Origin: Candidatus Woesebacteria bacterium GW2011_GWB1_33_22 | GTDB taxonomy: Bacteria > Patescibacteriota > Microgenomatia > UBA8517 | Assembly (NCBI GenBank): GCA_000989765.1 | Contig: LBOW01000001.1 | Coordinates: forward strand, 47,660-111,659 | Direction: 5' to 3' | DNA length: 64,000 nucleotides | In this document: positions 208 to 56,109 of the stretch, piece after piece | Layout of the letters: each line of letters starts with the position of its first letter | Numbering within the stretch: position 1 is the first letter of the stretch | Translations under genes and position numbers: made by a program | The notes under the pieces: model-generated | Told to the model about the DNA's origin: nothing | What the model saw: only the letters and a program-made list of their open reading frames with translations | Database searches by the model: none

Positions 208-924
208 ATGAAGACAGCAGTGATTACGGGTGCCGGTGGGGCTATGGGTAGTGAATTGGTCAAAGCTTTAGAAAAAGAAGACGTAACTTGTATTTTAATT
301 GAGAGAGAAAGGGATCTTCTAGGAGAATTGGTTCATATGCTGGATGGTAATAAACACTTTTTTTATAAAGCAGATTTTACCAATCAAAAAGATATTCAAA
401 ATATTATAAGCAATATTATCAGTAAGCATCAAAAAATTGACTATCTTTTTAATGTGGCAGGTATTGGAATTTATAAAAAACTAGAGGATTTAACACTTTC
501 CGAATGGAGAGCTTCAATGGATATAAATGTAAATTCTATATTTTTGTTTTCAAAAGGACTCTTACCTCTATTAAAAAATTCTAAAAATGCAATGGTACTC
601 TCTTTTGGTTCGGGAATGGGAATATATCCTAAAGAAAATAGAGTTGCCTACTGTGCTTCTAAATTTGCACTTCGAGGACTTTCTTTGACTTTATCTCGTG
701 AGTTTAAAGGGCGAGGTGTTGACTTTGTACTATTAACTCTTGGCTCTGTTATGACAGATTTTGGCACAGGCGGTTTAATTTATAGAAAAAAACTTGAAAC
801 TAACGGCAAAAAATATTTAAATGTAGAAGAAGTAATTTCTAAAGTAATAGAAATAATAAAATTATCTTCAAGGAAAGAGGAATATACCCTTTTCCCTGAA
901 GGATATGAAGAGGAAACTAAGTAG
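208..924 (+). CDS. short-chain dehydrogenase/reductase (classical SDR) family oxidoreductase
   Basis: N-terminal Rossmann motif ITGAGGAMG, catalytic YCASK (YxxxK) motif, about 238 aa as is typical for classical SDRs. Confidence 0.8.
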   Translation: MKTAVITGAGGAMGSELVKALEKEDVTCILIERERDLLGELVHMLDGNKHFFYKADFTNQKDIQNIISNIISKHQKIDYLFNVAGIGIYKKLEDLTLSEWRASMDINVNSIFLFSKGLLPLLKNSKNAMVLSFGSGMGIYPKENRVAYCASKFALRGLSLTLSREFKGRGVDFVLLTLGSVMTDFGTGGLIYRKKLETNGKKYLNVEEVISKVIEIIKLSSRKEEYTLFPEGYEEETK

Positions 925-15178: not shown

Positions 15179-16120
15179 TTAAAATAGTTTTTCTTCAATA
15201 TACTTTTCTGTCAGATTTTCTTTTTGATCTAAGTTAACCAGCATTTCAGCAAGAAGTCCTGTCGTAATTAATTGTATACCTATTATCATTAATAACATTC
15301 CTAGGAACAATAAAGGCTGTCTGTATTGTATTGTGCCTGTAAATACTCTCAAATAAGTAATATATACACCTATTAAAAATCCAATAAATGATAACATTAT
15401 TCCAATTGTTCCAAAAAAATGAGCTGGTTTTTTCATATATCCCGTAAGAAAAGTTACAGTTAGCATGTCTAAAAATCCTTTAATGTTTCTTTGCCAACCA
15501 AATTTACTTTTACCGTATTTTCTTGGTCTATGGATTACTATTATTTCACCTACTTTAAAATTTTGTTTTTCAGCTAAAACTGGAATATATTTATACAATT
15601 CTCCGTATAGGTGTAGATTCTCGACGACGACCCTTTTATAAGCTTTAAGGCCACAATTAAGGTCGTGAATTTTTATACCAGTTAATAATCTTGTTGTCCA
15701 ATTACCAAGTTTTGATGGTAAAGTCTTGGATATTGGATCATGACGGTTCTTTTTCCAACCAGATACTAAATCATACCCTTCACCAAGCATTTTGATAAGT
15801 TTAGGAATTTCTATCGGATTATCTTGTAGATCTGCATCCATAGTAATAATTATCTCTCCATTTGAGTTTTCGAAACCTGCTTGTAAGGCAATAGATTTAC
15901 CAAACCAACCTCTTAGTTTTACTATTTTAATTTTTTTATCCAACTTGTGGAGTTTTTCCAAAATTTGATATGATTTGTCAGTTGAGCCATCATCAACAAA
16001 AACAATTTGGTAATTTATTTTGTTCTTTTTAACTACATCAATAATTTCTAGATATAGTTTTTCTATAGACTCCTCCTCATTTTTAATTGGAATTACAATG
16101 GAAATTAGAAATTTGTTCAT
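15179..16120 (-). CDS. polyprenyl-phosphate glycosyltransferase (GT2, GtrB/ArnC/DPM1-like) with C-terminal TM helices
   Basis: MNKFLISIVIPIKNEE...VFVDDGSTDKS...MDADLQDNP plus two C-terminal TM helices, the typical Und-P-sugar synthase architecture. The six-frame ORF extends to 16132 with a TTG; the ATG at 16120 is the more likely start. Confidence 0.8.
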   Translation of the reverse strand: MNKFLISIVIPIKNEEESIEKLYLEIIDVVKKNKINYQIVFVDDGSTDKSYQILEKLHKLDKKIKIVKLRGWFGKSIALQAGFENSNGEIIITMDADLQDNPIEIPKLIKMLGEGYDLVSGWKKNRHDPISKTLPSKLGNWTTRLLTGIKIHDLNCGLKAYKRVVVENLHLYGELYKYIPVLAEKQNFKVGEIIVIHRPRKYGKSKFGWQRNIKGFLDMLTVTFLTGYMKKPAHFFGTIGIMLSFIGFLIGVYITYLRVFTGTIQYRQPLLFLGMLLMIIGIQLITTGLLAEMLVNLDQKENLTEKYIEEKLF

Positions 16121-16170
16121 TATAAAAACCAATTATACCTTATTAATGCAAAGTGTGATATATTTTCTTT

Positions 16171-19418: not shown

Positions 19419-20345
19419 TTAGTGAAAACCAATTTTTTGGTGAATAAGGTATTCTGGTCTTTTTTTAACCTCATCATAAATACGTGCAAGATATTCACCT
19501 ATAATACCTAAGGTTATAAGTTGAACCCCGCCCATAAAAAGAATTGATGATATTGTTGATGTCCAACCCATAATTCCTAAATTAATAAAAAATTTGAGTA
19601 TAAAAAGTATAACAATTAAAACAAAAGCAAATCCGGAAAAAATAAAGCCTAATATGCTTGCGATTCTTAAAGGGACAAATGAGAAAGAAACAATTCCATC
19701 CATGGCTAGTTTAAAAAGCCTAGAAAAGCTTGCTTCATTTCCAGCATATCTTTTTGACCTTTCGTATATGACACCTGTTTGTTTAAAACCTGTCCAAGCT
19801 CTTAATCCACTAAAGTACTTATTTTTTTCAGGCAAATCAATAATTATGTTTACGATTTTTCTGTCTAATATTGAAAAAGTGCCAGCGTCAATTGGCATTT
19901 TTAAAAAAGATATTTTGTCAAATAGTTTATAAAAAGATTTAAATAAAAATTTTCTTACAAAACTCTCTTTTCTTTTTCGCTTAACACCATAAACTACATC
20001 ATACCCTTGTAATGATTTTTTATACATTTTTTCAATTATATGTGGTGGATCTTGCAAATCGGCATCCATTACGACCACTTTTTCACCTTTTGAATGGACT
20101 AATCCTGCTGTTATCGCGGGCATATGACCGAAATTTCTAGAAAAAGATATAATTTTAATATGATTATCTTTTTTGGAAATTGGGCGCAAAATGTTTAAAG
20201 AATTATCATAACTGCCATCATCAATAAAAATCACTTCATAGCTACTACTTATTTTCTGAAAAGTTGTTTTAATTTTCTCATAAAGAGTTTTGATGTTTCC
20301 TTCCTCATTGTAAATCGGAACAATAACTGATATCTTTAATTTCAT
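19419..20345 (-). CDS. polyprenyl-phosphate glycosyltransferase (GT2, GtrB/ArnC/DPM1-like), second copy
   Basis: MKLKISVIVPIYNEEGNI...VIFIDDGSYDNS...MDADLQDPP plus two C-terminal TM helices. The six-frame ORF extends to 20381; the start at 20345 is more plausible and relieves the overlap with the divergent gene. Confidence 0.8.
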   Translation of the reverse strand: MKLKISVIVPIYNEEGNIKTLYEKIKTTFQKISSSYEVIFIDDGSYDNSLNILRPISKKDNHIKIISFSRNFGHMPAITAGLVHSKGEKVVVMDADLQDPPHIIEKMYKKSLQGYDVVYGVKRKRKESFVRKFLFKSFYKLFDKISFLKMPIDAGTFSILDRKIVNIIIDLPEKNKYFSGLRAWTGFKQTGVIYERSKRYAGNEASFSRLFKLAMDGIVSFSFVPLRIASILGFIFSGFAFVLIVILFILKFFINLGIMGWTSTISSILFMGGVQLITLGIIGEYLARIYDEVKKRPEYLIHQKIGFH

Positions 20346-20363
20346 AAGTGCAATATTACTAGA

Positions 20364-21083
20364 ATGAAGTTGATTAAGCAAATTCTAATATTTTTTATAA
20401 CAATTTTCTTTAAGATTTTCTTTTTAGTGTTTGGCGAGCCTAAAATTTCTAGCAGATTAAGGTCTGTGGTTAATTTATACAAGGGAAATAGTTTTTCCTC
20501 ACTATTTAAAATTATAAGGGTTTGGGATGCTCCTTTTGAAGAAATCGAAAAAGCTGTGCCGGAAAACGGTAAAATTGTTGACTTGGGATGTGGTGATGGA
20601 ATTTTGGGAAATTATTTAGCTTTATCGTCCAAAAAAAGAAGTGTTGTTGGGATAGAATTTAATAAGAAAAGGATAAGTGAGGCAAATAAAGGCATAGTTA
20701 ATACTAAATTTGTCTATGGCGATATTTTAAAAAGTAACTTTACTAAAGCAGATGCAATTCTACTTATACACGTGCTTCATCATCTAGAATCCTATATAGA
20801 TCAAGAAAAGCTTCTAACTAAATGCAAAGAAAGATTAAATAGGGGGGGTAAGATAATTATTGCAGAGATAATAGAAAGACCTTTACATAAGTTTTTATTT
20901 ACAGCCTTAACAGATTTTTTAATTGTACCTATACTGTTTGAAGGAAGGTTAATGAATACAATGATACATTTTAGAACCTTAGACAAATGGAAAACATTAT
21001 TTAAGAGAATGGGATTTAAATATAAATACTCGTTAAATCATCAAAATATGCCTTTCTCACACGCCATTTTTACATTGGAGTAA
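20364..21083 (+). CDS. class I SAM-dependent methyltransferase with N-terminal hydrophobic helix
   Basis: IVDLGCGDGILGNYL...AILLIHVLHHL...LNRGGKIII; N-terminal helix ILIFFITIFFKIFFLVF. Confidence 0.75.
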   Translation: MKLIKQILIFFITIFFKIFFLVFGEPKISSRLRSVVNLYKGNSFSSLFKIIRVWDAPFEEIEKAVPENGKIVDLGCGDGILGNYLALSSKKRSVVGIEFNKKRISEANKGIVNTKFVYGDILKSNFTKADAILLIHVLHHLESYIDQEKLLTKCKERLNRGGKIIIAEIIERPLHKFLFTALTDFLIVPILFEGRLMNTMIHFRTLDKWKTLFKRMGFKYKYSLNHQNMPFSHAIFTLE

Positions 21084-34736: not shown

Positions 34737-35093
34737 ATGAATATCTATACAATTGGGATTGTCTTAGTTGGAATGATTATCCTTCTTATTACTGCTGAGG
34801 TAATGAGTCATTATTTTAAAATTCACTCAGATAAATTTTACGTTATTTTTCATTTTGCAGGTGGTGCATTATCTTTCCTTTTATTTTTAAATTTATTTAA
34901 TAATAAACTTCTTGCTTTTTTCTTAGTTTTAGTAATTGGTATACTTTGGGAAATACATGAGTGGATATTATGGAAATTATATATTAAAACAAAATTATAT
35001 AAACCAAAGAGTAAGGATACAATTTGTGATTTGGTAATGGATATTTCCGGAGCGTTAATATTTTATGTTATTGAAATTTTACACATATTTTAA
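34737..35093 (+). CDS. small 3-4 TM membrane protein (GtrA-like size/topology)
   Basis: 118 aa with 3-4 hydrophobic helices, in a locus with GtrB-like enzymes. No motif-level proof. Confidence 0.4.
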   Translation: MNIYTIGIVLVGMIILLITAEVMSHYFKIHSDKFYVIFHFAGGALSFLLFLNLFNNKLLAFFLVLVIGILWEIHEWILWKLYIKTKLYKPKSKDTICDLVMDISGALIFYVIEILHIF

Positions 35094-43391: not shown

Positions 43392-45113
43392 ATGAAAATT
43401 ATTGGTTTAACATATCACAAAAGTGGAGTACATGATAATTCTGTTGCTCTTTTGGAGAACGGAAAAGTGTTATTTGCAGAAGCAGAGGAAAGAATTTCAA
43501 GAATAAAGCATGATGGAAGATTTCCATACCTTGCGTTAAAAGAAGGTTTAAATTTAACTAAAAATAAATTAAAAAATATTAATTATTTTGTATCTGCTAC
43601 ACCAAACGAAAATTATATTCAAATGTTTTTAACAACAGTTAAATTTTTACCAACCGTAGGTTTGGGAAATTATTTAGAACAAATGATTGGTGCACTTACA
43701 CATAAAATAGATAAAGTTTCAGATGATGACAGACCAAAAAATATACAGGAGATGGGAATATCGGAAAGTAAGTTTTTTACAGTTTCCCATTATTTTGCTC
43801 ATGCCGTTGCCGCTTATTATACTTGTCCATTTGATAAGTGTTTAGTAATTAATATGGATGGGTTTGGTCCCGGGGATAAGGGAGAGCCTTTGAGTGGACA
43901 AATTTATTTAGGTGAAAATAATAAATTAATAGGACTTGAGGTTGTGCCTGTTCATGCATCACTAGGGCTATATTACGGGGTTATAACAATGGCATTAGGA
44001 TTTAAATTAAATGACGGGGAAGGTAAAACCATGGGTCTGGCAGCATACGGAGATCCAGCAAAGTGTTACAAAAAAGTCAAAAATTTTTTCCCGAGATTTA
44101 TCGATAATGATTGGATAGTTAAAAGTTCAATAATGGACATTCTTAATGTTTCAAGGAAGAAAGTCTATGTGAAGTCAAGTACTTATAAATATCTTAAAAA
44201 GTTAGTAGAGGATTATGGTAAAGAAGATGTTGCTGCCGCCTGCCAATTGGTTTTTGAAGAGGAATTAGTAACTTACATTTCTCATCTTATCAAAAAGTAT
44301 AAAGTTTCAAAAGTTGCTTTAAACGGTGGTATCTTTTTAAATGTCAAGGCAAATATGAGACTTTTGGAGGAAAAAGTTGTTGATGATCTTTATGTTTATC
44401 CTAACCCTTCTGATGGGGGAACTGCTATGGGAGCTGCTCTTGCCGGATTCATAACTAAGGGTCAAAAAATAAAGCGACAAGAGCTACTGCATCCTGCATA
44501 CAGTAGAGAATATAAAAATTCAGAAATTATTACAGAACTCAAAAAGACAAAAGGAATAGAATACAAAAAATTAGGTACTAATCTTCCACGAATTGGGGCA
44601 AAACTACTTTTTGACGGAAAAGTAGTGGGTTGGTTTGAAGGCAGAGGAGAGTGGGGTCCTAGAGCGTTGGGGCAAAGAAGTGTAATAGCTGATCCAAGGC
44701 ATTTGGAAACTAAGAACAGAATAAATAATATATTGAAAGGAAGGGAGTGGTTTATGCCATTCGCTCCAAGCATGGCAATCGAGGGGGCTCCAAAGTATTT
44801 GAAGATGTTGAGAAAGGCACCATTTATGATAATTGGAGATAGAATCATGCCAGGAATGGAAAAAGATCTAAAGGCGGCGGCCCATATTGACGAGACTGTT
44901 CGCCCCCACCTCGTAACAAGAGAAGCAAACAAACTCTATTATCAAGTAATTAAGGAATTTGAGAAATTAACTGGTGTACCTACTATTTTAAATACTAGTT
45001 TTAATAAACATGGACTTCCAATAGTTTACACTCCAAGACAGGCTGTTGAGCATTTATTATGGGGTGCAATTGACGAACTAATAATTGGTAGTTATCATGT
45101 TTGGAGAAAATGA
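43392..45113 (+). CDS. carbamoyltransferase, NodU/CmcH family
   Basis: MKIIGLTYHKSGVHDNSVALLENGKVLFAEAEERISRIKHDGRFP matches the NodU/CmcH N-terminus; about 570 aa, Kae1/HypF-like fold length. Confidence 0.85.
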   Translation: MKIIGLTYHKSGVHDNSVALLENGKVLFAEAEERISRIKHDGRFPYLALKEGLNLTKNKLKNINYFVSATPNENYIQMFLTTVKFLPTVGLGNYLEQMIGALTHKIDKVSDDDRPKNIQEMGISESKFFTVSHYFAHAVAAYYTCPFDKCLVINMDGFGPGDKGEPLSGQIYLGENNKLIGLEVVPVHASLGLYYGVITMALGFKLNDGEGKTMGLAAYGDPAKCYKKVKNFFPRFIDNDWIVKSSIMDILNVSRKKVYVKSSTYKYLKKLVEDYGKEDVAAACQLVFEEELVTYISHLIKKYKVSKVALNGGIFLNVKANMRLLEEKVVDDLYVYPNPSDGGTAMGAALAGFITKGQKIKRQELLHPAYSREYKNSEIITELKKTKGIEYKKLGTNLPRIGAKLLFDGKVVGWFEGRGEWGPRALGQRSVIADPRHLETKNRINNILKGREWFMPFAPSMAIEGAPKYLKMLRKAPFMIIGDRIMPGMEKDLKAAAHIDETVRPHLVTREANKLYYQVIKEFEKLTGVPTILNTSFNKHGLPIVYTPRQAVEHLLWGAIDELIIGSYHVWRK

Positions 45114-45835
45114 AATATCAAACCAAGAATCTTCAGCCACACAGCAAAATCGGTTTATCTTTTATAAGTTTATTAAAACATTATTATCATGTTAGTAATT
45201 TAGATAATTTGAGACAATCTTTGAAAGATGACTTAATCGCCACCATATTTATGGGGTCTGGGAGTGGTATATTTGGATCGTTCATAAGGGGTATGTATTT
45301 TAAGTTATTTTTAAACTATAAACTTCCATCTATGATTGGAAATCGCTTTCGTATTATAAATTCGTCAATGGTTAAGGTTGGTAAGAACTTGTGGATTAAA
45401 GATGATGTTACGATATTTGCGGGGGACAAGATGACAATTGGCGATGGCTGTGTTTTGTGTGATAGATCAAGTATTTGGTCCAGTAAAGACGGTTTAAAAA
45501 TTGGAGATGGATTTTCATTAGGTATAGGTGGATATATCTGTGGAACTGAAGGAAGGATAGCTATAGGTAATAAAGTAATTATGGCTGATAATGTACGTTT
45601 ATACAGTTGGAATCATAGTTTATATTCCAGTTTAAAAACGTTTTCAGAGAATGAAATTTCTCATCGAGGTATTACGATTGGTAACAATTGCTGGCTTGGA
45701 TCTGGATGTGTAATATTAGATGGTGTGAATTTAGGTGATAACTGTGTTGTAGGTGCGGGAGCTGTAGTTACAAAGTCATTTCCTAAAAATTCGTTAATCG
45801 CGGGGGTCCCAGCAAAAGTTGTTAAAACAATATGA
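45101..45835 (+). CDS. hexapeptide-repeat O-acetyltransferase (WcaF/maltose O-acetyltransferase-like)
   Basis: C-terminal GITIGNNCWLGSGCVILDGVNLGDNCVVGAGAVV LbH repeats. Confidence 0.75.
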   Translation: MEKMKYQTKNLQPHSKIGLSFISLLKHYYHVSNLDNLRQSLKDDLIATIFMGSGSGIFGSFIRGMYFKLFLNYKLPSMIGNRFRIINSSMVKVGKNLWIKDDVTIFAGDKMTIGDGCVLCDRSSIWSSKDGLKIGDGFSLGIGGYICGTEGRIAIGNKVIMADNVRLYSWNHSLYSSLKTFSENEISHRGITIGNNCWLGSGCVILDGVNLGDNCVVGAGAVVTKSFPKNSLIAGVPAKVVKTI

Positions 45836-47496
45836 CTAAATTACTAGAATCTTATTTTATATATATTTTATTAGTCGTATCAGTTTTAGTTTGGTTTGTA
45901 TCCTATTCAAAAGTTCCATTTATTTTTTTTCAGCAAGATGAGTTAATGGGGTTTGGTCTTTTTATTCTAAACAGGGTTGATATGTTGTATACGGGCCTTG
46001 GATTTAAAGGAATGGTACATTTTGTGCCGGTCACAATGTCACTTTCCTTCGGAATTTTTAATATTTTTGGCCTAAATCATATTCCTTACAATATATTTGG
46101 GTTGATATTTCACACAATTAATGGACTCCTTGTTTATCTATTGGGTCAAAAGATATTTAAGAATCGTTTATATTCACTCCTTGCTCTGATAATGTTTTTT
46201 TCAAGTAGCTCTGGCGCAGAGTTGGTTATGTGGCCTGTTATAAATTTAAACACAATTTCACTGTCCTTTTCACTCCTTGCTATGTATGTTTTAATCTCAT
46301 CGTATATAAAAGATGGGTATTTACAAATTAAGAAGTCTATTTACATTTCTATATTATTTTTACTCTCTGTTTTCTCAGTAGAATACGCAGCTGGACTTAT
46401 TTTTATCATTCCTGTCACCGCATTTTTAATGGATAGAAAAAATAGTGGAATAAAAAAACTAACTCAAATCTGGCCATTTTATTTAACGGTAATGATATTT
46501 TTAATACTTAGATTTGTTCCCTCTCTTTTTTTAAGAGAATTGAATACCTTAAATTCTGTCCTTGAGACTGGGGTTTTTAGTAGAGCCATGGGTTTAATTC
46601 GATTGCCACTTATTTATGTTTCCCAGACCTTTTTGGGTCAAAATGCATTAATAAACATTTCTCAACTTATATCTAGTGTTTTTTGGGGAAACACAACAAA
46701 CACTCAATTTGCAGAGGGGGTCATTTATAAATATGTAGCGTCCGTATTGGGAGTATTTATTGTTATTATTTTTCTAAAGTTGTTTTCGAAATTTACTAAA
46801 TTAGATAAAAAATATTTATTAATTTTCCTAAGTTTTATTATCTTCTCTTCGCTACCTTTTATCTTAGTTCCTGGACAGTTGTTTTCAATATTTTCATCTA
46901 GGTATTTATATTTTGGTGGTGTTGGGTATGCTTTTATTTTGGTCTTGATATTGCAATTAATTGTAAATCTCAAAAAAAATAGAATTACCCTATTCTATAT
47001 AATATTTTTAGTTTCAATGATCCTCGGTGGAGTATATGGTAATTATAAAAAAGGCAATGCTCTTTATAACATTGGGAACCTGAGGGTTCAAATTTTAAGA
47101 AGTATTAAAAAAGACCATCCAACACTTCCACAAAAAGTTATTTTTTATACAGATAGCAACAAAAGTTATTATGGTTTGCCTGACGAGGATAAGATTCTAC
47201 CTTTTCAGTCTGGTCTAGGGCAAACACTACTTTTATGGTATTATTCAGACGAAAAGTTTTCAAAAAGTTTTTTTAAAAATGAATACCTTTGGGGCATTCT
47301 TTCAGAAGGCTATAAGGAAATTGATGACAGGGGATTAGGGTATTTTAGAGATTTTGAGAGACTTAAAAATGCAGTTAATGATAATAATCTAAATCCCGAA
47401 TCAGTTATAGCATTTAAGTGGGATTATTATACTAATACATTAACTGACACAACAAACGAAGTTAGAAATAAACTTAAGAATGAAAATTATAAATAA
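45832..47496 (+). CDS. polytopic membrane protein, candidate GT-C glycosyltransferase
   Basis: About 13 TM helices; N-terminal loop with FFQQDELMGFG (DE motif); hydrophilic C-terminal about 130 aa. Confidence 0.5.
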   Translation: MTKLLESYFIYILLVVSVLVWFVSYSKVPFIFFQQDELMGFGLFILNRVDMLYTGLGFKGMVHFVPVTMSLSFGIFNIFGLNHIPYNIFGLIFHTINGLLVYLLGQKIFKNRLYSLLALIMFFSSSSGAELVMWPVINLNTISLSFSLLAMYVLISSYIKDGYLQIKKSIYISILFLLSVFSVEYAAGLIFIIPVTAFLMDRKNSGIKKLTQIWPFYLTVMIFLILRFVPSLFLRELNTLNSVLETGVFSRAMGLIRLPLIYVSQTFLGQNALINISQLISSVFWGNTTNTQFAEGVIYKYVASVLGVFIVIIFLKLFSKFTKLDKKYLLIFLSFIIFSSLPFILVPGQLFSIFSSRYLYFGGVGYAFILVLILQLIVNLKKNRITLFYIIFLVSMILGGVYGNYKKGNALYNIGNLRVQILRSIKKDHPTLPQKVIFYTDSNKSYYGLPDEDKILPFQSGLGQTLLLWYYSDEKFSKSFFKNEYLWGILSEGYKEIDDRGLGYFRDFERLKNAVNDNNLNPESVIAFKWDYYTNTLTDTTNEVRNKLKNENYK

Positions 47497-50455
47497 AATT
47501 TGGAATAATTGGCACACAGTAATACTTGTTGCCTTATGTCTTGTTCCAATTATATGGTTTATTGGTAGGGGTGATGTTCTAATTACTGGATTAGACACCA
47601 ATTTCCCACTTGATCCATTAGTTTGGTTTCAGCGGAGATTTTATGTTTGGAATGGCATTAATAATGCTGGAATTGATTTTAGTTCATCAGTTGCAGGAGT
47701 TTTTTTTCATTTTGTTCAACTTGCTCCATATTTATTAGGTTTATCCTTAAAAAATGTAGAAATTGTAAGTTTGGTTTTTTGGTTTTCTGCGATTGTTTCC
47801 TCTTCATATCTTTTAGCAAAGACTATTCTACCTAAAAACAAAACACCTCAATTGATTGTTGTCATTCTTTATATTTTAAACATCTATCTTTTCAATACTT
47901 GGGAGAATGTAAAAGTATCTAACTTAGCTTTGGTCACTGCGTTACCTTTAATTATATCAATTGTCTACAATTGGTTTTCAGAAAAAATAAATTCAAAAAA
48001 AGCAATGATATACCTTTGTCTTGGTTCAATTCTTGCTTCAGGAGCTGGAATAAACCCCGCATATTTTTTAGTAATAATTTTAGCTCTGATAATTGAAACT
48101 GTTGTATATCTTTTTTTAAACCTATCTACAAAAACAGAAATAAAGAAGATTTTAGTAAAAGGGTTAACATCCTTTTTTATATTGATTTTAGTTAATATAT
48201 TTTGGATATTTCCACTTTTAAATTTTTTATATTCTACTAATACCATTAGTTTGGTTGATATAGGACTAACCAATTGGATTACTAGTTTATCTCAAAATAC
48301 ATCGATAATTAATGTTATACGCTTACAAGGGGCATGGGATTGGTATGCCTTAGATAGTAGCGGAATACCTCAATATCTTTCTTACACACTAAATTATTTG
48401 TATAAATTTCCGTTTATTATTTTTAGCTTTGCTGTTCCAATATTGGTATTATTTTCATTTGTTTTTTTTGATAAAGAACAAAAATTTTGGTATATTTTTT
48501 TTGGAATACTAACGGTATTGGGAATATTTTTTGGTGTGGGGTCACACCCACCAACAGGATCCTTTTTCATTTTCCTATTTGAACATGTACCATTCTTATC
48601 TTTTTTTAGAAGCCCTTGGTACATTTTTACTCCACTTTTAACTCTTTCATATGCAGCTTTAGTGGGATTATTAACATATTCGTTCTTTCAAAAATATAAA
48701 GAAGGAATGATTAAACATATATTTAATTTTTTAATTATTATATTTTTGATAGCTTATGGATTATATAATTATCCATTAATTACTGGAAAAATTTTTAGAC
48801 CTGAAAGTAAAAATAGTTTCTATGTTTATTTTCCAGAATATGTATGGGATACAAAAGATTGGTTGAGTAACAAACATGATTCAACTGATGAAAGAATAAT
48901 TTCATATCCCGACGATCAATTAGAGTCATTTAATTGGGGCTATCAAGGTACTGAATCAATTTTAAGTTTATATTCTAACAGAGAAATTATTACACCATCA
49001 TTTAATATGACATCAAAAGTTTTTTCAGAAATGTTAGGTTCCTTTTATGCACATATAAAAAGAGGTGAATATAAATCTGCTATTTCGTTAATGGAATTTT
49101 TTGGTGCTAATGAAATTTTTTATAAAAAAGACTCTTCAACTTTATCCTCCCCGATAGGAGATAAAATAAATGATTTGGTTGAGACAACTAAATTTGGAGA
49201 ATGGTATTTTATGCGTCCAAAAGACGAGATGAATAAAAAAATATTTATTGCGGAAGCAGTTTACAAGAATTTATCTAATCCGGAAGATTTTATTCCTGTA
49301 ATTCCATTTTTAAAACCCAAGAGTGTTGTTGTTAACAATAAAGATACTGAAATTGGACAAATTAAATCAAATGAAAGATTTTTTTCGATTATTAAAACTG
49401 GAATATTGGACCAAGATAAAAGTATATTAACTAATGTTAACAAATATGGACTAGATATATTACGCAATGGAACATTTAATATTCTGATTGAAAGAAATTA
49501 TTTAGATCGAAATAGTCTCATTGTAAAAATTGATTCAAATGTAATTAGTAATTCATTGATTCAATATGATCAAAGTTTGATTAGTGTAGGCCCAGTTAAA
49601 CTATTTTCAGGAACACATACTATTGAAATTGTTTATCCAGTACAAGAAAATTTATTGGCAATTTCTGATTTCGAAAATATTTCAAAAAACCAAAATCTAA
49701 GAAAAGAAGAATTTCCAGAGAATATTCAAAAAACTTTATTAGTATACAATGAAAGTAAAGAAGCTCAAAAAATAATTTTACCAGTAAATGAATTTAATCC
49801 CTATTTAAGGTATGCTGTAGGATTTGATTATAAATATGTGTATGGAAAAGTGCCATTTGTTGAAGTTTTACAATCTGCCCCGACTTCTCCAGTAAAAAAT
49901 CATTCGATTTATCCAGGTTCTTCTACTGATTGGCAGACTCGTTATGACATTTTCAGACCGGTTGAAACAAATTCTAAATTAGAACTTCTGATTAAAGCTG
50001 GACCAAATGAATTTTCTGGTAGAAGTAAATCTTTTATAGAAAATATATTTATAAAAAGAATTTATGACAATAATGTATATCTTGTAGAATCTAATTCTGA
50101 TACTTCTTTTAAATATTTGTCTAAAGGTGAACTAAAGTATAAAAAAATTAATTCGGTAAAGTATGAAGTTGAGTTGAAAAGTGATGGGGATAATCAATTG
50201 GGTAGTGTAATAGCATTTTTAGATAATTACAACAAAGGTTGGGTTTTAAAGTCTTCTGATTCAAAAATAGAAAATAAATTTAGTCACTTTACGATTAACG
50301 GTTATGCAAACGGTTGGTATGTACCTGCAGGAATGAATACTGGTAAGTTTATTATCTATTATCGTCCACAGACTTTATATATATTCGCAGTTTTAGTCTC
50401 AGTTTGTACAATTATGTTATTAATTATTTACAGTTTACATAAAAAGAAATCTTAA
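47480..50455 (+). CDS. AftD/DUF3367-like large GT-C membrane glycosyltransferase (alpha-(1->3)-arabinofuranosyltransferase family architecture)
   Basis: N-terminal GLDTNFPLDPLVWFQRRFYVWNGINNAGIDFSS resembles the DTK.DL..DP...l.r...W signature of DUF3367/AftD proteins. About 13 TM helices, a roughly 550-aa extracytoplasmic region and a C-terminal TM anchor. Confidence 0.6.
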   Translation: MKIINKIWNNWHTVILVALCLVPIIWFIGRGDVLITGLDTNFPLDPLVWFQRRFYVWNGINNAGIDFSSSVAGVFFHFVQLAPYLLGLSLKNVEIVSLVFWFSAIVSSSYLLAKTILPKNKTPQLIVVILYILNIYLFNTWENVKVSNLALVTALPLIISIVYNWFSEKINSKKAMIYLCLGSILASGAGINPAYFLVIILALIIETVVYLFLNLSTKTEIKKILVKGLTSFFILILVNIFWIFPLLNFLYSTNTISLVDIGLTNWITSLSQNTSIINVIRLQGAWDWYALDSSGIPQYLSYTLNYLYKFPFIIFSFAVPILVLFSFVFFDKEQKFWYIFFGILTVLGIFFGVGSHPPTGSFFIFLFEHVPFLSFFRSPWYIFTPLLTLSYAALVGLLTYSFFQKYKEGMIKHIFNFLIIIFLIAYGLYNYPLITGKIFRPESKNSFYVYFPEYVWDTKDWLSNKHDSTDERIISYPDDQLESFNWGYQGTESILSLYSNREIITPSFNMTSKVFSEMLGSFYAHIKRGEYKSAISLMEFFGANEIFYKKDSSTLSSPIGDKINDLVETTKFGEWYFMRPKDEMNKKIFIAEAVYKNLSNPEDFIPVIPFLKPKSVVVNNKDTEIGQIKSNERFFSIIKTGILDQDKSILTNVNKYGLDILRNGTFNILIERNYLDRNSLIVKIDSNVISNSLIQYDQSLISVGPVKLFSGTHTIEIVYPVQENLLAISDFENISKNQNLRKEEFPENIQKTLLVYNESKEAQKIILPVNEFNPYLRYAVGFDYKYVYGKVPFVEVLQSAPTSPVKNHSIYPGSSTDWQTRYDIFRPVETNSKLELLIKAGPNEFSGRSKSFIENIFIKRIYDNNVYLVESNSDTSFKYLSKGELKYKKINSVKYEVELKSDGDNQLGSVIAFLDNYNKGWVLKSSDSKIENKFSHFTINGYANGWYVPAGMNTGKFIIYYRPQTLYIFAVLVSVCTIMLLIIYSLHKKKS

Positions 50456-50839
50456 ATGATTAGATCTTATTTATTTAAATTATTTAATAAAAAGTATGAC
50501 AATTTAAATCAATGGGCAATAGACCATTTGGTTGGATTATTTATTTTTAATATAATCATGTCTTTGCTTGTGTTGCTTAACACTGCTGAATATTTCAAAC
50601 CATTTTTTTTCTTAGGAATAAATGTAATTTTTTTCATTGGGCTGATATTATCCATACCTCTTCTCGGAGCAAGGTCAAAATCTATGTTTTTTATATCAAT
50701 AATTTTTTTAGTTTTTGCTATTTTTTTAAAAATATTAAAGATTGAAATTTGGGCAGAGAGAACAGCTGTTTATACTTTTCAATCTTTACTTATAGGAGTT
50801 ATTTTACTAACAAGGGAATCAATCAATAAACATTGGTAA
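50456..50839 (+). CDS. small 4-TM membrane protein
   Basis: 127 aa with four hydrophobic helices; start immediately after the upstream stop. Confidence 0.4.
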   Translation: MIRSYLFKLFNKKYDNLNQWAIDHLVGLFIFNIIMSLLVLLNTAEYFKPFFFLGINVIFFIGLILSIPLLGARSKSMFFISIIFLVFAIFLKILKIEIWAERTAVYTFQSLLIGVILLTRESINKHW

Positions 50840-52182: not shown

Positions 52183-52353
52183 ATGTATAATTGTAGTGTG
52201 AATAATATCTCAAAAATATTAATAGGCTTATCTTTTTTAGGTTTTTTAATAATAGGCTTTTTACTTTTAACTAACCACCTCGGATTAGCGACCAAAATAT
52301 CTGGTTATATATTTTTTATATTGATTCTTGGTATATGCTTAAAAACAAACTAA
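52183..52353 (+). CDS. possible small two-TM peptide (56 aa), unannotated in the ORF track
   Basis: ATG at 52183 gives MYNCSVNNISKILIGLSFLGFLIIGFLLLTNHLGLATKISGYIFFILILGICLKTN, with two clear hydrophobic helices. It fills the only sizeable gap (52171-52334) in a run of same-strand genes. No strong RBS. Confidence 0.2.
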   Translation: MYNCSVNNISKILIGLSFLGFLIIGFLLLTNHLGLATKISGYIFFILILGICLKTN

Positions 52354-54836
52354 CTCAAATCTTATATATATTATTAATTATTTTACCAGTTATTGTTGTT
52401 TTTAAAAATATTTTTTATATTTACCCCTTTAGTTTTGGAGATGCGCCATATTTTTATACGGACACTTTAGCAAGTCTATTATCAGAACCTTTAATATGGG
52501 TAACTCGAGGTGTTAATTTTGGAGGTATTAACCAATTTCTATGGCTTTCGCCCATTATGGCTATTTATGGCTTTTTAGGTAAATACTTACTATTAGACAA
52601 TCAAATAATTGTTCGTATTCTTTTTTATATACCAGCAGTAATATTGTCTATTCTCGGTCCATATATTTTAACTAAATATTTGAACTTTTCAAAAACAGTT
52701 TCATTTTTTTCATCTTTGTTTTATTGCTTAAACACGTATTTTATATTACTAATTGATGGTGGACAGGTGGGCGTAGCTTTGGCTTATGGAATTTTTCCTA
52801 TTGTTTTGTATTTTATTAAAAAATATATTGATGTTTCAAATACAACGAACTTTTTTTGGGCATATGTTTTTGGAATGTTACTTTGCATAATTGATCCCAG
52901 AATATATATCATTTTGTTTTCTTTATTAGCAATATGGAGTTTTTTAAGAAGAGAGTCTTTAAAGCCATTATTTGTTTTACAAATTCCAATATTACTATCC
53001 AATTTATATTGGCTTTATCCAATGATCAAAATAAAGCCAATAAATGTAAGTTATTCGGTACTGGATCTACAGACATCTTCTTTAATAAATTCGCTTTTGC
53101 TTTATGCCCCCCATTGGCCAAATAATATTTTTGGTAAAATAGTACCTCCCTTATTTTACTTTTCTATTATCCCCATTTTAGTGTTTGGGTTTTTGTTTTT
53201 TAAAGACAGACACAAAGATATTAAGAAGCTAGTAATATTATTTCTAATTTTTGCCTTTTTGGCTAAAGGTACGACACCTCCATTTGGAGAGATATATGAT
53301 TTTATTTTGACCAAGATACCCTTGATGGTAGCTTTTCGTGACTCTAGTAAATTTTTTATACCCTTAACATTGTTGGGTGGAATTTTAATAGGAGAAACTA
53401 TCGATAAGTTGAAAATGATAAAATTCATTAAAATAATTACTTATACAATAATATTATTACTTGTTTGGCAAGCTATATTCGGAAAATTGAATTTTAATTT
53501 GTCGGGAAGAATCTTAAACGATGATATGGGTAAAATTTATTCTAATTTAAAAAATGAACAAGGAGAATATAAAACATTATGGTTTCCTGAAAAGCACCCT
53601 ATGGCATATGAATCTTTTGATAAACCAGCTCTAGACGCAAGAGACCTTATTAAAATTAATACTATTTCGTCTGTCAATGTCTCCGAGGACCCTTTTAATT
53701 TCTTAAATGATATAAATTTTCCGATAAAATTAGCTAAACTTGGAATTAAATATATATTTTTATCAGGAGATCCGAGGAATGTTTATCCAAGTGAAGATGA
53801 TCTAAAAAGATGGTCTACAGTTTCAAAATTAATAAGCAACAACCCCAACCTTAAGCCAGTAAATTGGAATACAAGTTTTCAAATATTTGAAGTTCCTGAT
53901 TTTTTACCTAAGTTTTATAAAGTTCACGATTTAATTGGAGCTGTTGGACCTCATCTTCCCTCAGATATGCCAGCTGTTTATTTTGAAGACGGGAAATTTG
54001 ATCCGAGGTTTCTAGAAAATAAAGACTCAAATTCAGTTAAATTATTATTTAATAATTCTGTAGAACAGGATCTTACTATGAGTTTTCTACAAAAATATTT
54101 CGTTGATACTGGTAATGCAAAAACAAATGAATGGGCATATTATTCAGCGGATAAGTATCTCAAGGCAAAATACGAATTATTAATCCGGAATTTTATATAT
54201 GATGATTTTGATTACAGCAAAGGACTATCATTTTCAACAAAAATGGGTGAAAAAATTGAATTTAATTTTAAAAACTTAGACTTAGGAGAATATGTTTTAG
54301 CTGTTCGCAGGATGAATGAATTAAACAAATTTGAATGGAAAATAATTAATCATTCACTTAATATTAAAGATAAAGATTTTAGTTACGAATATATAAATGA
54401 AAAAGATTTTGATGCCGTAAATGTTATAGCATTAATTCCTAAAAAAGATTTTGAAGAAGCAGAAAAATTAGGTCAACACCATATAGCCTATTTTGGAGTG
54501 ATCAAAAACGATAAAAACTATAGTTATAAATGGGATACTGTTTCTATAGTTAATGAAGACACTTCCAAATATTTGTTAACGACAGACAAATATGGTTTTT
54601 GGTTAATTCTAAATGAAAATTATAATCCATTATGGACTATTCGTAATGGGGAAAAATATTCTAATTCTATTCCAATTAATTCAGAAGTTAATGGTTTCTA
54701 TTTTGAACCAACATGGAATGATTTACATATTGAATTTAAAGGTCAGGAGTATTTTAGATGGGGATTATATTATGCATTTATTTCTGTATCATTAACGTTG
54801 ATAATATTATTATATTTACATATTAAGAATGAATAA
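52335..54836 (+). CDS. large polytopic membrane protein with about 470-aa extracytoplasmic C-terminal domain and C-terminal TM anchor; candidate GT-C-like
   Basis: About 12 N-terminal TM helices (SFGDAPYFYTD first loop), long hydrophilic region, final TM helix YYAFISVSLTLIILLYL. Confidence 0.5.
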   Translation: MLKNKLTQILYILLIILPVIVVFKNIFYIYPFSFGDAPYFYTDTLASLLSEPLIWVTRGVNFGGINQFLWLSPIMAIYGFLGKYLLLDNQIIVRILFYIPAVILSILGPYILTKYLNFSKTVSFFSSLFYCLNTYFILLIDGGQVGVALAYGIFPIVLYFIKKYIDVSNTTNFFWAYVFGMLLCIIDPRIYIILFSLLAIWSFLRRESLKPLFVLQIPILLSNLYWLYPMIKIKPINVSYSVLDLQTSSLINSLLLYAPHWPNNIFGKIVPPLFYFSIIPILVFGFLFFKDRHKDIKKLVILFLIFAFLAKGTTPPFGEIYDFILTKIPLMVAFRDSSKFFIPLTLLGGILIGETIDKLKMIKFIKIITYTIILLLVWQAIFGKLNFNLSGRILNDDMGKIYSNLKNEQGEYKTLWFPEKHPMAYESFDKPALDARDLIKINTISSVNVSEDPFNFLNDINFPIKLAKLGIKYIFLSGDPRNVYPSEDDLKRWSTVSKLISNNPNLKPVNWNTSFQIFEVPDFLPKFYKVHDLIGAVGPHLPSDMPAVYFEDGKFDPRFLENKDSNSVKLLFNNSVEQDLTMSFLQKYFVDTGNAKTNEWAYYSADKYLKAKYELLIRNFIYDDFDYSKGLSFSTKMGEKIEFNFKNLDLGEYVLAVRRMNELNKFEWKIINHSLNIKDKDFSYEYINEKDFDAVNVIALIPKKDFEEAEKLGQHHIAYFGVIKNDKNYSYKWDTVSIVNEDTSKYLLTTDKYGFWLILNENYNPLWTIRNGEKYSNSIPINSEVNGFYFEPTWNDLHIEFKGQEYFRWGLYYAFISVSLTLIILLYLHIKNE

Positions 54837-56109
54837 ATTTTTTAAAAAAGCTTTTTTACTAACAAAATCAGCAACAGCCAGAGATACATATGTTTTATTT
54901 CTTGGGAATTTAGGCTCTGCCTTTTTGGGGTTTCTTTTCACTTTTTTTGTTGCACGAGCTTTAAATAGGGAAGACTTTGGGATTTTTTCTGCAGCTATGA
55001 ATCTTGTGGTAATAATCTCATCATTATCTGATGTTGGTATAACTACAGGTCTTGTTAATTTTATTTCAGAGTCTGACTCAGAAGGAAACGAAAAAAAATC
55101 ACTTGAATATCAAAAAGCTGGTTTAACGATAAGAGTCGGGATAATTTTAATTCTTACTACTTTAATTATTATCTTTTCTCCTTATATATCTAAATTAATG
55201 TTGGCAACAACAGATCCATTTGTTGCTATATGGGCAGCTATTGTCTCGCTTGTATCTTTTGTTCCAATGTATTTTCCATATATATTACAGGCTAAAAAAC
55301 AATTTTTGAAATCTGTGATTGTCGATAACACTTACTATTTATTTAGATTGATTGGTCTTCTTGGTTTAATATATTTTGGGGCAATGACACTATACACTTC
55401 TCTTTCGACAGCTATAGTAGGTTTTGTGTTTAGTCTGATCGCTAGTATATCTTTATTGAAATTTAAATTTTTATTTTCCAGACCAGAGAAAAATATATAT
55501 ACTAGTTTGATTAAGTTTTCTGGATGGATTGGTGTGAATAGAATTATCTCATCTATTTCAGGACGTTTGGATATTCAAATGCTTGCTAGTATGGCGGGTG
55601 CAACTACTACAGCTCTTTATTCTATACCTGCGAGGCTTTCTTCAATTGTAATAATATTAACATCAAGTTTTTCAGCAGTATTGGCTCCTAGATTTGCTTC
55701 AATGGGTGACAAAGAAAGAGAAAAAAAATATTTAATTAAATCGTGCTTCGCTTTACTTCCCATCATTTTAATAATTTTGGTTTGGGTCATTATGGCAAAA
55801 CCATTTATGCAGGTAATCTTTCCAAATTATATTGATTCGGTCCCAGTGTTTCAGGCATTAACTCTGTCAATGATCCCTTTTATTTTGACAGCACCATCGG
55901 TTGTTGTAATTATTTATGCAATGAAAAAAAATGTTTATATAGGGGCATATAGTTTTTTTCAGATTGTTGCAATATTTATACTTAATTGGATTTTTATTCC
56001 TAAGTTTGGTCCATTTGGACCCACTCTTACTTTTGGTATAACAAATACAATATTGGCAATTTATACTTGGGTAATAGTAATTAAACATTATTGGGGTCAA
56101 GAAAAATAA
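54829..56109 (+). CDS. oligosaccharide flippase (Wzx/MOP superfamily), second copy
   Basis: 426 aa, about 12 TM helices; N-terminus ARDTYVLFLGNLGSAFLGFLFTFFVARAL typical of polysaccharide biosynthesis/Wzx proteins. Confidence 0.7.
   Translation: MNKFFKKAFLLTKSATARDTYVLFLGNLGSAFLGFLFTFFVARALNREDFGIFSAAMNLVVIISSLSDVGITTGLVNFISESDSEGNEKKSLEYQKAGLTIRVGIILILTTLIIIFSPYISKLMLATTDPFVAIWAAIVSLVSFVPMYFPYILQAKKQFLKSVIVDNTYYLFRLIGLLGLIYFGAMTLYTSLSTAIVGFVFSLIASISLLKFKFLFSRPEKNIYTSLIKFSGWIGVNRIISSISGRLDIQMLASMAGATTTALYSIPARLSSIVIILTSSFSAVLAPRFASMGDKEREKKYLIKSCFALLPIILIILVWVIMAKPFMQVIFPNYIDSVPVFQALTLSMIPFILTAPSVVVIIYAMKKNVYIGAYSFFQIVAIFILNWIFIPKFGPFGPTLTFGITNTILAIYTWVIVIKHYWGQEK

Follow-up and report, generated by a model that had tools for sequence, protein, structure and literature searches.

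A probable GT-C glycosyltransferase of a deeply divergent DUF3367/AftD-superfamily branch in a Woesebacteria glycan island

Three-component systems of periplasmic glycosylation include GtrA/GtrB/GtrC, ArnC/ArnT and CsbB/GtcA/YfhO. In the DUF3367/AftD family, we know of no non-actinobacterial member with a known donor, acceptor or product. AftD (Rv0236c / MAB AftD; PDB entries 6W98, 6WBX and 6WBY), a protein of ~1,400 aa, is the alpha-1,3 / 1,5 arabinofuranosyltransferase D of Mycobacteriales, a cell-wall enzyme, and uses the donor decaprenyl-phosphoryl-D-arabinofuranose, supplied by the DPA pathway, whose enzymes are a UbiA-type PRPP transferase, DprE1 and DprE2. As described for AftD (bioRxiv 10.1101/2019.12.22.885152), the enzyme has an unusual count of 11 transmembrane (TM) helices with two juxtamembrane helices after TM1 (EL1) and distinctive TM3 and EL4 features, and its alpha/beta domain leads into beta-sandwich carbohydrate-binding-like domains, to which binding of the glycan acceptor is ascribed, after which the chain re-enters the membrane with TM12 and TM13-16, the latter forming a four-helix bundle to which acyl carrier protein (ACP) binds. 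Five residues, K39, D41, E251, K361 and D474, were found essential by mutagenesis according to the same report. Here, we compared AftD with T991, a 991-aa protein encoded in a 64-kb stretch of DNA (the window), which is probably an inner-membrane GT-C-fold glycosyltransferase and not an AftD ortholog, belonging to a branch of the DUF3367/AftD superfamily that is deeply divergent and centred on Patescibacteria.

The T991 gene and its glycan island

The features of the locus are as follows.

15179..16132, - strand: 317-aa polyprenyl-phosphate sugar synthase, the second of ArnC/GtrB type, 31 kb upstream of T991 (Pfam Glycos_transf_2)
19419..20381, - strand: GtrB/ArnC-type polyprenyl-phosphate sugar synthase, 320 aa, 27 kb upstream of T991 (Pfam Glycos_transf_2)
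45832..47496, + strand: up554, polytopic membrane protein of 554 aa with an FFQQDE motif after TM1 (ORF list)
47480..50455, + strand: T991, 991 aa, probable distant DUF3367/AftD-superfamily GT-C glycosyltransferase (ORF list)
50456..50839, + strand: sm127, small 4-helix membrane protein of 127 aa, beginning one base past the T991 stop
52335..54836, + strand: par833, distant T991 paralog in the N-terminal GT-C region (BLASTP E 2e-9, T991 residues 45-442)
54829..56109, + strand: Wzx-type flippase following par833 (Pfam Polysacc_synt 1.3e-28)

The T991 frame starts with ATG and runs for 2,976 nt without interruption, a length far beyond chance for DNA at 27-30% G+C. Homologs aligning along the full length numbered 325, and many of these alignments begin at residue 2-3, which supports the start codon. 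An earlier sequence-only reading had placed a 991-aa ORF at exactly these coordinates in a low-GC, non-mycobacterial genome, and both points held, the host being a tiny member of the Woesebacteria, in the Microgenomates group of Patescibacteria. Across 20,384 bases, the window has 100% identity to a groundwater metagenome scaffold of 187,778 bp, and a neighbouring protein is identical to one that NCBI assigns to Candidatus Woesebacteria bacterium GWC2_33_12.

T991 lies in an overlapping gene string, up554-T991-sm127, which recurs in ~24 related loci and also in one complete genome. The end of up554 and the start of T991 overlap by 17 nt, and up554 immediately precedes the T991 homolog in ~24 related loci as well as in CP065002.1 and JGI contigs; sm127 adjoins or overlaps the T991 homolog in 23; the par833-Wzx pair follows the module in ~14. 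No Pfam match was obtained for up554, which is probably another GT-C; in some of its homologs, an F5/8 type C domain is present at the C-terminus. The AF2 model of sm127 (pLDDT 82) contains four helices and gave no specific fold match, nor did the protein match any Pfam family. No such conserved partners are described for AftD in the part of its report covered here.

The string sits within a glycan-biosynthesis island of >84 kb, which encodes two Wzx-type flippases, two ArnC/GtrB-type synthases, GT2 and GT4 enzymes and many PMT_2-type GT-Cs, together with sugar aminotransferases, dehydratases and methyl-, acetyl- and carbamoyl-transferases. In phmmer searches against PDB, the 320-aa synthase matched GtrB sll0501 (E 2.6e-79, full length) and ArnC (1e-47), and the 317-aa synthase matched ArnC (E 5.7e-42, full length) and GtrB (3.7e-30); the former is a candidate donor-producing enzyme. 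By functional analogy, the island may be likened to GtrA/GtrB/GtrC-type systems, in having a GT2 synthase of polyprenyl-phosphate sugar, a small membrane protein of several helices beside the transferase, and a large GT-C that would act outside the membrane on the flipped lipid-linked monosaccharide. It differs from them in that sm127 lacks a detectable GtrA signature, as the PF04138 HMM matched neither sm127 nor four homologs at E<=0.5, and in that the synthases are remote and non-syntenic in Microgenomates relatives. Of the claim that T991 stands next to polyprenyl-phosphate-sugar synthases, the presence of two such genes in the window was borne out but their adjacency was not, since they lie 27-32 kb upstream on the - strand. 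No synteny of ArnC/GtrB genes with the T991 family was detected in the Microgenomates loci, and a full-length ArnC-like gene occurred within 10 kb in only three related loci, all distant (two from Omnitrophota, and L038). DprE1- or UbiA-type genes of the DPA pathway were absent from the 64-kb window and from 10 kb on either side.

Predicted fold and remote homology to AftD

The AF2 model of T991 (pLDDT 87.6, pTM 0.85) divides the protein into four parts.

47480..48787, + strand: GT-C membrane part, residues 1-436, with 11 TM helices (AF2 secondary structure, hydropathy)
48788..49174, + strand: alpha/beta domain on the extracytoplasmic side, part of the GT-C super-domain, residues 437-565, with W486-GYQGTES
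49175..50362, + strand: beta-sandwich (CBM-like) extracytoplasmic domains, residues ~566-961
50366..50437, + strand: single C-terminal TM anchor, residues 963-986, then HKKKS (AF2 helix, hydropathy)

This predicted layout agrees with the many TM helices, large extracytoplasmic region and C-terminal anchor that had been read from the sequence. In the model, two short juxtamembrane helices occupy the interval between TM1 and TM2, TM3 is broken, and a long TM7 is followed by the long loop EL4. All features of the AftD-type GT-C fold were present in the model, namely 11 TM helices, the EL1 juxtamembrane helices, a kinked TM3, and the long TM7 plus EL4 with an extracytoplasmic alpha/beta domain, and residues 437-565 are colinear with AftD residues ~430-560. 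As in AftD, the alpha/beta domain leads into beta-sandwiches and a return to the membrane, but T991 has fewer beta-sandwich domains, which probably form its glycan-acceptor binding region, and one C-terminal TM helix where AftD has TM12 and the ACP-binding bundle. Neither AF2 nor hydropathy revealed an additional TM bundle after the anchor helix, and a lone hydrophobic segment beyond residue 600 was likewise seen in 51/52 members of the T991 subfamily and in 77/81 tier-2 relatives, the latter being proteins retrieved by the T991 family profile at E ~1e-100. The suggested structural comparison came out in favour of AftD: a Foldseek search with the T991 model placed 6w98_A (E 6.8e-18) first among solved structures and with a wide lead, with weaker matches to DPY19 (1.4e-5), PglB (1.6e-5) and EmbA (4.6e-4). 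PglB/STT3/AglB, AftA, EmbA/B/C, PMT and DPY19, whose structures have been solved, have in common with T991 the general GT-C fold and, within the first extracytoplasmic loop, the position of the conserved acidic residue.

At the sequence level, T991 itself matched neither PF11847 (GT-C_AftD, formerly DUF3367; gathering score 26 bits) nor NCBIfam even at E<=10 in hmmscan, it stayed under all Pfam reporting thresholds, and a narrow AftD HMM gave 5.8 bits only. Taken literally, this outcome refutes the DUF3367/AftD assignment of the sequence-only reading, but the HMM test was too insensitive here. T991 likewise found no match among PDB sequences, a profile of 52 close homologs did not retrieve the AftD chains from them, and the close family alone gave a non-significant profile-profile result against AftD (probability 1.6-3.9%). 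Full-length homologs at 40-51% identity to T991, by contrast, scored 28-38 bits against PF11847 (P0016 33.9, P0020 28.5, P0038 32.3, P0057 31.0, P0060 38.3, P0090 32.0), in colinear matches such as protein residues 38-551 versus profile positions 19-512, and a precomputed PF11847 match was present in ~40% of the close homologs listed. Tier-2 relatives scored higher (P0335 55.6, P0299 47.7). When a broadened profile (T991, 51 close homologs and 81 tier-2 relatives) was aligned with 25 Mycobacteriales AftDs using hhalign, the probability was 97.8% (E 9.3e-13) over 562 columns, spanning query positions 4-613 and AftD positions 2-630. The identity between T991 and AftD is 10-14%. Because direct evidence from T991 is weak, the homology call rests on intermediates and the predicted structure; these support remote homology between T991 and the DUF3367/AftD GT-C family, with a homologous GT-C super-domain, and in this form the family assignment survived.

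Conserved motifs and active-site positions

Three motifs of T991 were aligned with AftD.

47588..47650, + strand: first extracytoplasmic loop motif, G37-LDTNFPLDPLVWFQRRFYV-W57
48263..48346, + strand: EL4 loop motif, residues 262-289, G..W..SLS.NTS..N..RLQGAWDWY
48590..48634, + strand: EL5/TM10 motif, P371-FLSFFRSPWYIFT-P385

The N-terminal GIDFSS-type motif that had been likened to AftD is indeed present, running from G37 through W57-N to G64-I-D-F-S-S, and resembles the AftD N-terminus of PDB entry 6W98 (...SPDTKLDLAINPLRFAARALNLWSSDLPFGQ...); the two proteins have the first-loop motif D-T...NP/DP-L..F..R....W in common. Within it, D39 is invariant in the subfamily (52/52) and in tier-2 relatives (81/81) and aligns with AftD D37, itself invariant in 25/25 AftDs, making D39 a candidate catalytic or metal-binding Asp on the basis of conservation. 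Also conserved in all three groups are R281 (AftD R267), R377 (AftD R357), which is invariant throughout, and the pair W486-G487, which aligns with the WG pair of AftD, while W286 aligns with the 100% conserved W272.

The residues reported as essential in AftD, each invariant in 25/25 AftDs, were all replaced in T991 (0/5 kept). N41 stands at K39 and P43 at D41; T268 stands at E251 and I382 at K361, loop positions where the alignment is accurate only to within about one or two residues; and T491 stands at D474. Across the subfamily, the replacements N41, P43 and I382 vary little or not at all, and T268 and T491 occupy variable positions. At the first of these, D is found in 27/52 members; the second is followed by E492, the counterpart of E475, where 51/52 members have an acidic residue. 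At the I382 position, Ile is found in 52/52 subfamily members versus Lys in 78/81 tier-2 relatives, and the paralog par833 retains FRDSSKF. Overall, the subfamily (n=52) has ~100 invariant positions, many of them polar and located, per AF2 secondary structure, in extracytoplasmic loops or at membrane boundaries; conserved polar examples are D39, N41, H77, E142, N143, K145, R281, D287, R377, R440 and E/D492.

Proposed function and alternative readings

By reference to established GT-C enzymes, T991 would take a sugar from a polyprenyl-phosphate-linked donor on the outer side of the cytoplasmic membrane, the donor having been made on the cytoplasmic side, with the ArnC/GtrB-type GT2 enzymes of the island as one possible source, and then flipped. 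The sugar would be passed to a growing cell-surface glycan held by the beta-sandwich domains, with D39 serving as the catalytic or metal-binding residue. Since all five residues essential in AftD are substituted, catalytic competence is an assumption of this scheme. The same replacements, together with the missing ACP-binding C-terminal bundle, led us to conclude that T991 is not an AftD ortholog, and its donor sugar, linkage and acceptor probably differ from decaprenyl-P-arabinofuranose and arabinan.

Least credence is given to T991 being a true AftD equivalent, that is, an arabinofuranosyl- or furanosyltransferase with a decaprenyl-P-arabinofuranose-like donor that builds an arabinan-like polymer in the Patescibacteria envelope. 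No solved structure and no named family comes closer to T991 than AftD, a polysaccharide acceptor like that of AftD is suggested by the CBM-like domains, and some T991 relatives bear the NCBI label 'alpha-(1->3)-arabinofuranosyltransferase family protein'; such names, however, stem from a family-level HMM and not from experiment, and the low identity, the lack of a TM13-16 bundle, the five substitutions and the absence of a DprE1-like FAD oxidase and a UbiA-type transferase from the window and 10 kb on either side all speak against it. The furanosyl role put forward by the sequence-only reading found no support. An oligosaccharyltransferase of the STT3/PglB/AglB type, which would move a preassembled lipid-linked glycan en bloc to proteins, for instance an S-layer protein, is very improbable, as T991 has 11 TM helices versus 13, inspection of the sequence after residue 436 found no WWDxG catalytic motif, which in that type lies in the domain following the last TM helix, and the structural similarity is clearly below that to AftD.

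It is also improbable that T991 is an inactive GT-C-fold scaffold or glycan-binding subunit working only with up554 and sm127. Inactivity would explain the loss of the AftD-essential residues, including the subfamily's replacement of the K361-equivalent Lys that tier-2 relatives retain, and would fit the tight coupling to up554, which bears its own FFQQDE first-loop motif; yet the numerous invariant polar positions are typical of a maintained active site, and the first-loop Asp and two Arg common with AftD are retained.

Returning to T991 as an active glycosyltransferase, up554, T991 and sm127 could conceivably, though this is unlikely, form an undescribed heteromeric machine of the Microgenomates subfamily, with T991 as the catalytic core and a rewired active site that takes a different lipid-linked donor. 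If so, the island might supply that donor as a carbamoylated, methylated or amino sugar, and the product might be a Patescibacteria-specific surface polymer. Cited along with this idea are the change of the K361-equivalent Lys to an invariant Ile and the new invariants E142-N143-x-K145, K437 and R440.

Reading frame and superfamily membership of T991

T991, the 991-aa target protein, is encoded by an ATG-initiated open reading frame on the plus strand (47480..50455 in the ORF list), exactly as the sequence-only reading had placed it, and since stop codons are common at the 27-35% G+C of the surrounding DNA, a frame this long (2,976 nt) is beyond chance. Full-length alignments were obtained with 325 homologs of ~950-1,030 aa each. 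The AF2 secondary structure placed 11 TM helices in residues 1-436, followed by an alpha/beta domain, beta-sandwiches to ~residue 961 and one C-terminal TM helix (residues 963-986), in agreement with the many TM helices, extracytoplasmic region and C-terminal anchor proposed earlier. The N-terminal motif GLDTNFPLDPLVWFQRRFYVWN...GIDFSS, which had been taken as diagnostic of the family, was likewise found, and its likeness to the start of AftD, the mycobacterial cell-wall arabinofuranosyltransferase, is genuine: D-T, then N/D-P-L..F/W..R....W, is common to T991 and M. abscessus AftD, whose N-terminus (PDB entry 6W98) reads ...SPDTKLDLAINPLRFAARALNLWSSDLPFGQ.... The 6W98 residues were taken from printed alignments, and approximate sequences served as bait only.

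Direct searches with T991 did not recover this relationship. Hmmscan against Pfam and NCBIfam gave no relevant match even at E≤10, phmmer against all PDB sequences returned nothing relevant, and an HMM of the close subfamily (T991 and 51 close homologs) recovered no AftD chain when searched against PDB with hmmsearch. The DUF3367/AftD HMM check thus yielded no significant match to T991, literally the outcome that the sequence-only reading had named as refuting its claim. An AftD HMM built from 25 Mycobacteriales sequences scored T991 at only 5.8 bits, and the same short region (~residues 445-497) matched it in most family members, whereas none of the control GT-Cs taken from the window did so. 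As a test of the family of T991, the direct HMM search turned out to be too insensitive.

The homologs were more informative. A precomputed match to PF11847 (Pfam GT-C_AftD, formerly DUF3367) is carried by ~40% of the full-length homologs that are 35-51% identical to T991, and NCBI names some homologs "DUF3367 domain-containing" or "alpha-(1->3)-arabinofuranosyltransferase family protein." Rescanned homologs scored 28-38 bits (gathering score, 26) in colinear matches, one of them pairing residues 38-551 with profile positions 19-512 of 661. An exhaustive search with the family profile found 8,584 cluster representatives (50% identity) at E≤1e-3; of these, 1,499 passed E≤1e-30. Among the representatives is a second tier of more distant relatives (tier 2), of which 81 served as intermediates to AftD. 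Tier 2 proteins are mostly ~1,000-1,300 aa long and in most cases match the family profile over the N-terminal ~600 residues only; the PF11847 gathering score was passed by 4 of the 8 tier 2 members scanned, the top score being 55.6 bits. In one tier 2 relative (P0297), Pfam DUF6541 (41.4 bits, residues 77-352) outscored PF11847 (29.1 bits), which points to DUF6541 as a further branch of this GT-C superfamily.

Profile-profile comparison of the close family alone with the 25 Mycobacteriales AftDs gave colinear, nonsignificant alignments (probability, 1.6% and 3.9%). When the 81 tier 2 sequences were added, the probability rose to 97.8% (E 9.3e-13, 562 columns), with query positions 4-613 aligned to AftD 2-630. 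With the intermediates included, and only then, the comparison was significant and indeed decisive. Together, the PF11847 scores of the homologs, the profile-profile alignment and the architecture bear out the proposed membership: T991 belongs to the DUF3367/AftD superfamily, its homology being established through intermediates and structure.

Residues and architecture compared with AftD

Set against the published AftD description, the AF2 model is AftD-like in its 11 TM helices, where other GT-Cs have two more, in a pair of juxtamembrane helices following TM1, in a broken TM3 and in a long TM7 plus EL4. According to the same source, K39, D41, E251, K361 and D474 of AftD are essential in complementation (bioRxiv 10.1101/2019.12.22.885152). 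Their equivalents, and those of further conserved residues, are listed below.

AftD residues, each conserved in 25/25 AftDs, and their equivalents in T991. Pairing is from the significant profile alignment and is accurate to ~1-2 residues only in the E251 and K361 loops; "essential" is as given in the complementation study.
K39 (essential): T991 N41; close subfamily N 52/52; tier 2 variable
D41 (essential): T991 P43; close subfamily P 51/52; tier 2 P 69/81
E251 (essential): T991 T268; close subfamily variable, D 27/52; tier 2 variable
K361 (essential): T991 I382; close subfamily I 52/52; tier 2 K 78/81
D474 (essential): T991 T491; close subfamily T, I or V; tier 2 mostly L, P or F
D37: T991 D39; close subfamily D 52/52; tier 2 D 81/81
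R267: T991 R281; close subfamily R 52/52; tier 2 R 78/81
R357: T991 R377; close subfamily R 52/52; tier 2 R 81/81
WG pair: T991 W486-G487; close subfamily W 52/52, G 50/52; tier 2 W 81/81, G 66/81
E475: T991 E492; close subfamily acidic 51/52; tier 2 variable

None of the five residues reported there as essential is retained in T991, while AftDs, the close subfamily and tier 2 all share the first-loop Asp, both arginines and the WG pair. Judged from the alignments, the Lys-to-Ile change at the K361 equivalent is specific to the T991 subfamily, which also has invariant polar residues of its own (E142, N143, K145, N148, K437 and R440). These data provide a residue map for mutagenesis, with D39, R281 and R377 conserved and the K361 equivalent lost.

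T991 is ~400 residues shorter than AftD and stops after one C-terminal TM helix, without the ACP-binding TM13-16 bundle reported for AftD. The bundle is also absent in 77 of the 81 tier 2 relatives; this actinobacterial feature is missing from both non-actinobacterial branches examined.

The conserved module and the glycan-biosynthesis island

T991 lies between up554, an upstream membrane protein, and sm127, a downstream 127-aa membrane protein whose gene overlaps that of the GT-C-like protein gt445. The end of up554 and the start of T991 share 17 nt, and the first base of sm127 directly follows the T991 stop. Genes near this module are as follows.

45832-47496 (+): up554, 554 aa, polytopic, unannotated
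52335-54836 (+): par833, 833 aa, distant T991 paralog (BLASTP E 2e-9 to T991 residues 45-442)
54829-56109 (+): Wzx-type flippase, translationally coupled to par833
35065-37788 and 37773-40442 (+): membrane proteins of 907 and 889 aa with C-terminal F5/8 type C (discoidin) domains

The arrangement up554-T991-sm127 recurs in ~24 Microgenomates-type loci of GTDB genomes, in ~14 of which a par833 homolog and then a Wzx flippase follow a few kb downstream, and the same layout occurs in the complete 1.27-Mb genome CP065002.1 and in a 240-kb JGI contig. Distant T991 copies (24-31% identity) in Omnitrophota, Saccharibacteria and Berkelbacteria are without these partners. In five loci (L028, L037, L040, L031 and L039; Saccharibacteria, Berkelbacteria and some others), the family gene sits inside a far longer open frame, the longest being ~5.4-5.9 kb from stop to stop, or in 2-3 tandem copies.

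No Pfam match was found for up554; directly after its first TM helix it carries FFQQDE, similar to the acidic motif found in the first loop of PMT- and ArnT-type GT-Cs, and some of its homologs end in a C-terminal F5/8 type C domain. sm127, with four helices in its AF2 model (pLDDT 82), gave no family match and no specific fold match; a GtrA-like flippase was considered for it as a functional guess and found no Pfam support. The paralog par833 retains the FRDSSKF motif, including the Lys lost by the T991 subfamily. The two F5/8 type C proteins showed no significant BLASTP similarity to T991 and were rejected as paralogs, par833 being the real one; many related loci have homologs of these two proteins upstream of the module, and their discoidin domain is also carried by many mycobacterial AftD homologs.

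The module is part of an island of >84 kb, devoted to glycan biosynthesis, that spans the entire window and runs on for 10 kb or more past both ends; complete genomes of relatives are only ~0.8-1.3 Mb. At least 11 GT-C-type polytopic proteins are encoded in the window: up554, T991, gt445, par833, the two F5/8 type C proteins and the following.

12550, 25741, 40446 (-) and 57922 (-): PMT_2
2409: PIG-V-like

The window also holds GT4 and GT2 glycosyltransferases, two Wzx-type flippases, DegT aminotransferases, sugar dehydratases or epimerases, several methyltransferases, a carbamoyltransferase, a hexapeptide acyltransferase and an AsnB-like amidotransferase. Within 10 kb of its ends lie four further PMT_2 genes (upstream) and a Wzy_C-family gene with GT4 genes (downstream). 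The carbamoyltransferase (43392-45113, +) is of the NodU/CmcH type and recurs a few kb from the family gene in ~10 related loci (among them L004, L005, L007, L009, L010, L016, L017, L029 and L031), a hint that the product contains a carbamoylated sugar.

Two GT2 proteins of ~320 aa, full-length homologs of ArnC and GtrB, are by this similarity genuine polyprenyl-phosphate monosaccharide synthases.

15179..16132 (-): GT2 synthase, E 5.7e-42 to ArnC
19419..20381 (-): GT2 synthase, E 2.6e-79 to GtrB

The sequence-only reading had put T991 next to such synthases; two are indeed in the window, but 27-32 kb from T991 and not adjacent. Of 35 related loci, only three, all distant (two from Omnitrophota, and L038), have a full-length ArnC-like gene no more than 10 kb away.

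Proposed role, alternatives and distribution

T991 combines an AftD-type GT-C fold and topology with three conserved residues (the Asp of the first loop and a pair of Arg), CBM-like beta-sandwich domains and its operon and island context; from these we infer a biochemical role as a glycosyltransferase. By established knowledge of GT-Cs, it would act at the outer face of the cytoplasmic membrane, drawing a sugar from a flipped, polyprenyl-phosphate-linked donor of cytoplasmic origin, and would attach it to a surface glycan bound by the beta-sandwich domains. D39 would serve in catalysis or metal binding, with R281 and R377 as candidate ligands for phosphate.

That T991 is a true arabinofuranosyltransferase, the furanosyl role suggested earlier, is highly improbable, since the residues essential to AftD in the complementation data are substituted and since neither the 64-kb window nor the 10 kb on either side holds genes for decaprenyl-P-arabinofuranose (DPA) synthesis, whether DprE1 or UbiA type. 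A short-chain dehydrogenase at 208..924 was rejected as a DPA-pathway gene, as no DprE1-like gene flanks it. With the AftD-essential residues replaced, the C-terminal bundle gone and no DPA genes nearby, T991 is not an AftD, and because its branch does not conserve the residues on which AftD function depends, the label "arabinofuranosyltransferase" is over-specific and not warranted there. The pocket is remodeled, which speaks for a donor sugar, linkage and acceptor other than those of AftD.

An oligosaccharyltransferase-like enzyme is very unlikely: the fold match is much weaker, there are 11 TM helices and not 13, and the WWDxG motif is absent. It is also unlikely that T991 is a catalytically dead scaffold for up554, as its loops carry a dense set of invariant polar residues. 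A GT-C glycosyltransferase is the well-supported yet unsurprising reading of T991; the glycan island around it is remarkable, and no long-standing question is opened.

The family link itself is not new, because databases already attach DUF3367/AftD labels to relatives in Woese-, Davies- and Microgenomates bacteria, although T991 itself escapes annotation. New in detail are the homology via intermediates and structure, the unwarranted name, the Lys-to-Ile switch and the conserved up554-T991-sm127 module. In the literature searched, no paper connected AftD or DUF3367 with Patescibacteria. With ~8,600 clusters at 50% identity reached from the family profile, the AftD-type GT-C super-domain extends well past Actinobacteria. 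Candidatus Woesebacteria belong to the Microgenomates group of Patescibacteria (CPR), which are tiny, mostly uncultivated, host-dependent bacteria; here, one such genome gives >84 kb to glycan biosynthesis, and T991 anchors one conserved module within it.

The window was identical to a groundwater scaffold (ANAN16-1_SAMN03202996...scaffold_56, 187,778 bp) at all 20,384/20,384 compared bases, and sm127 is identical to a protein from Candidatus Woesebacteria bacterium GWC2_33_12 (NCBI). An apparent strain hypervariability of T991, seen because sm127 had a 100% named NCBI match and the next relatives of T991 were only ~55% identical, proved to be an artifact of 90% clustering; contigs carrying sm127 encode T991 identical at 991/991 residues. 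Many GTDB records with the family gene (loci L007-L039), including the complete 0.81-Mb chromosome OZ246419.1, are titled "uncultured Gammaproteobacteria bacterium" and have Microgenomates-like gene content, and one family-bearing record is titled "Woesearchaeota archaeon"; these titles are probably placeholder or wrong taxonomic labels.
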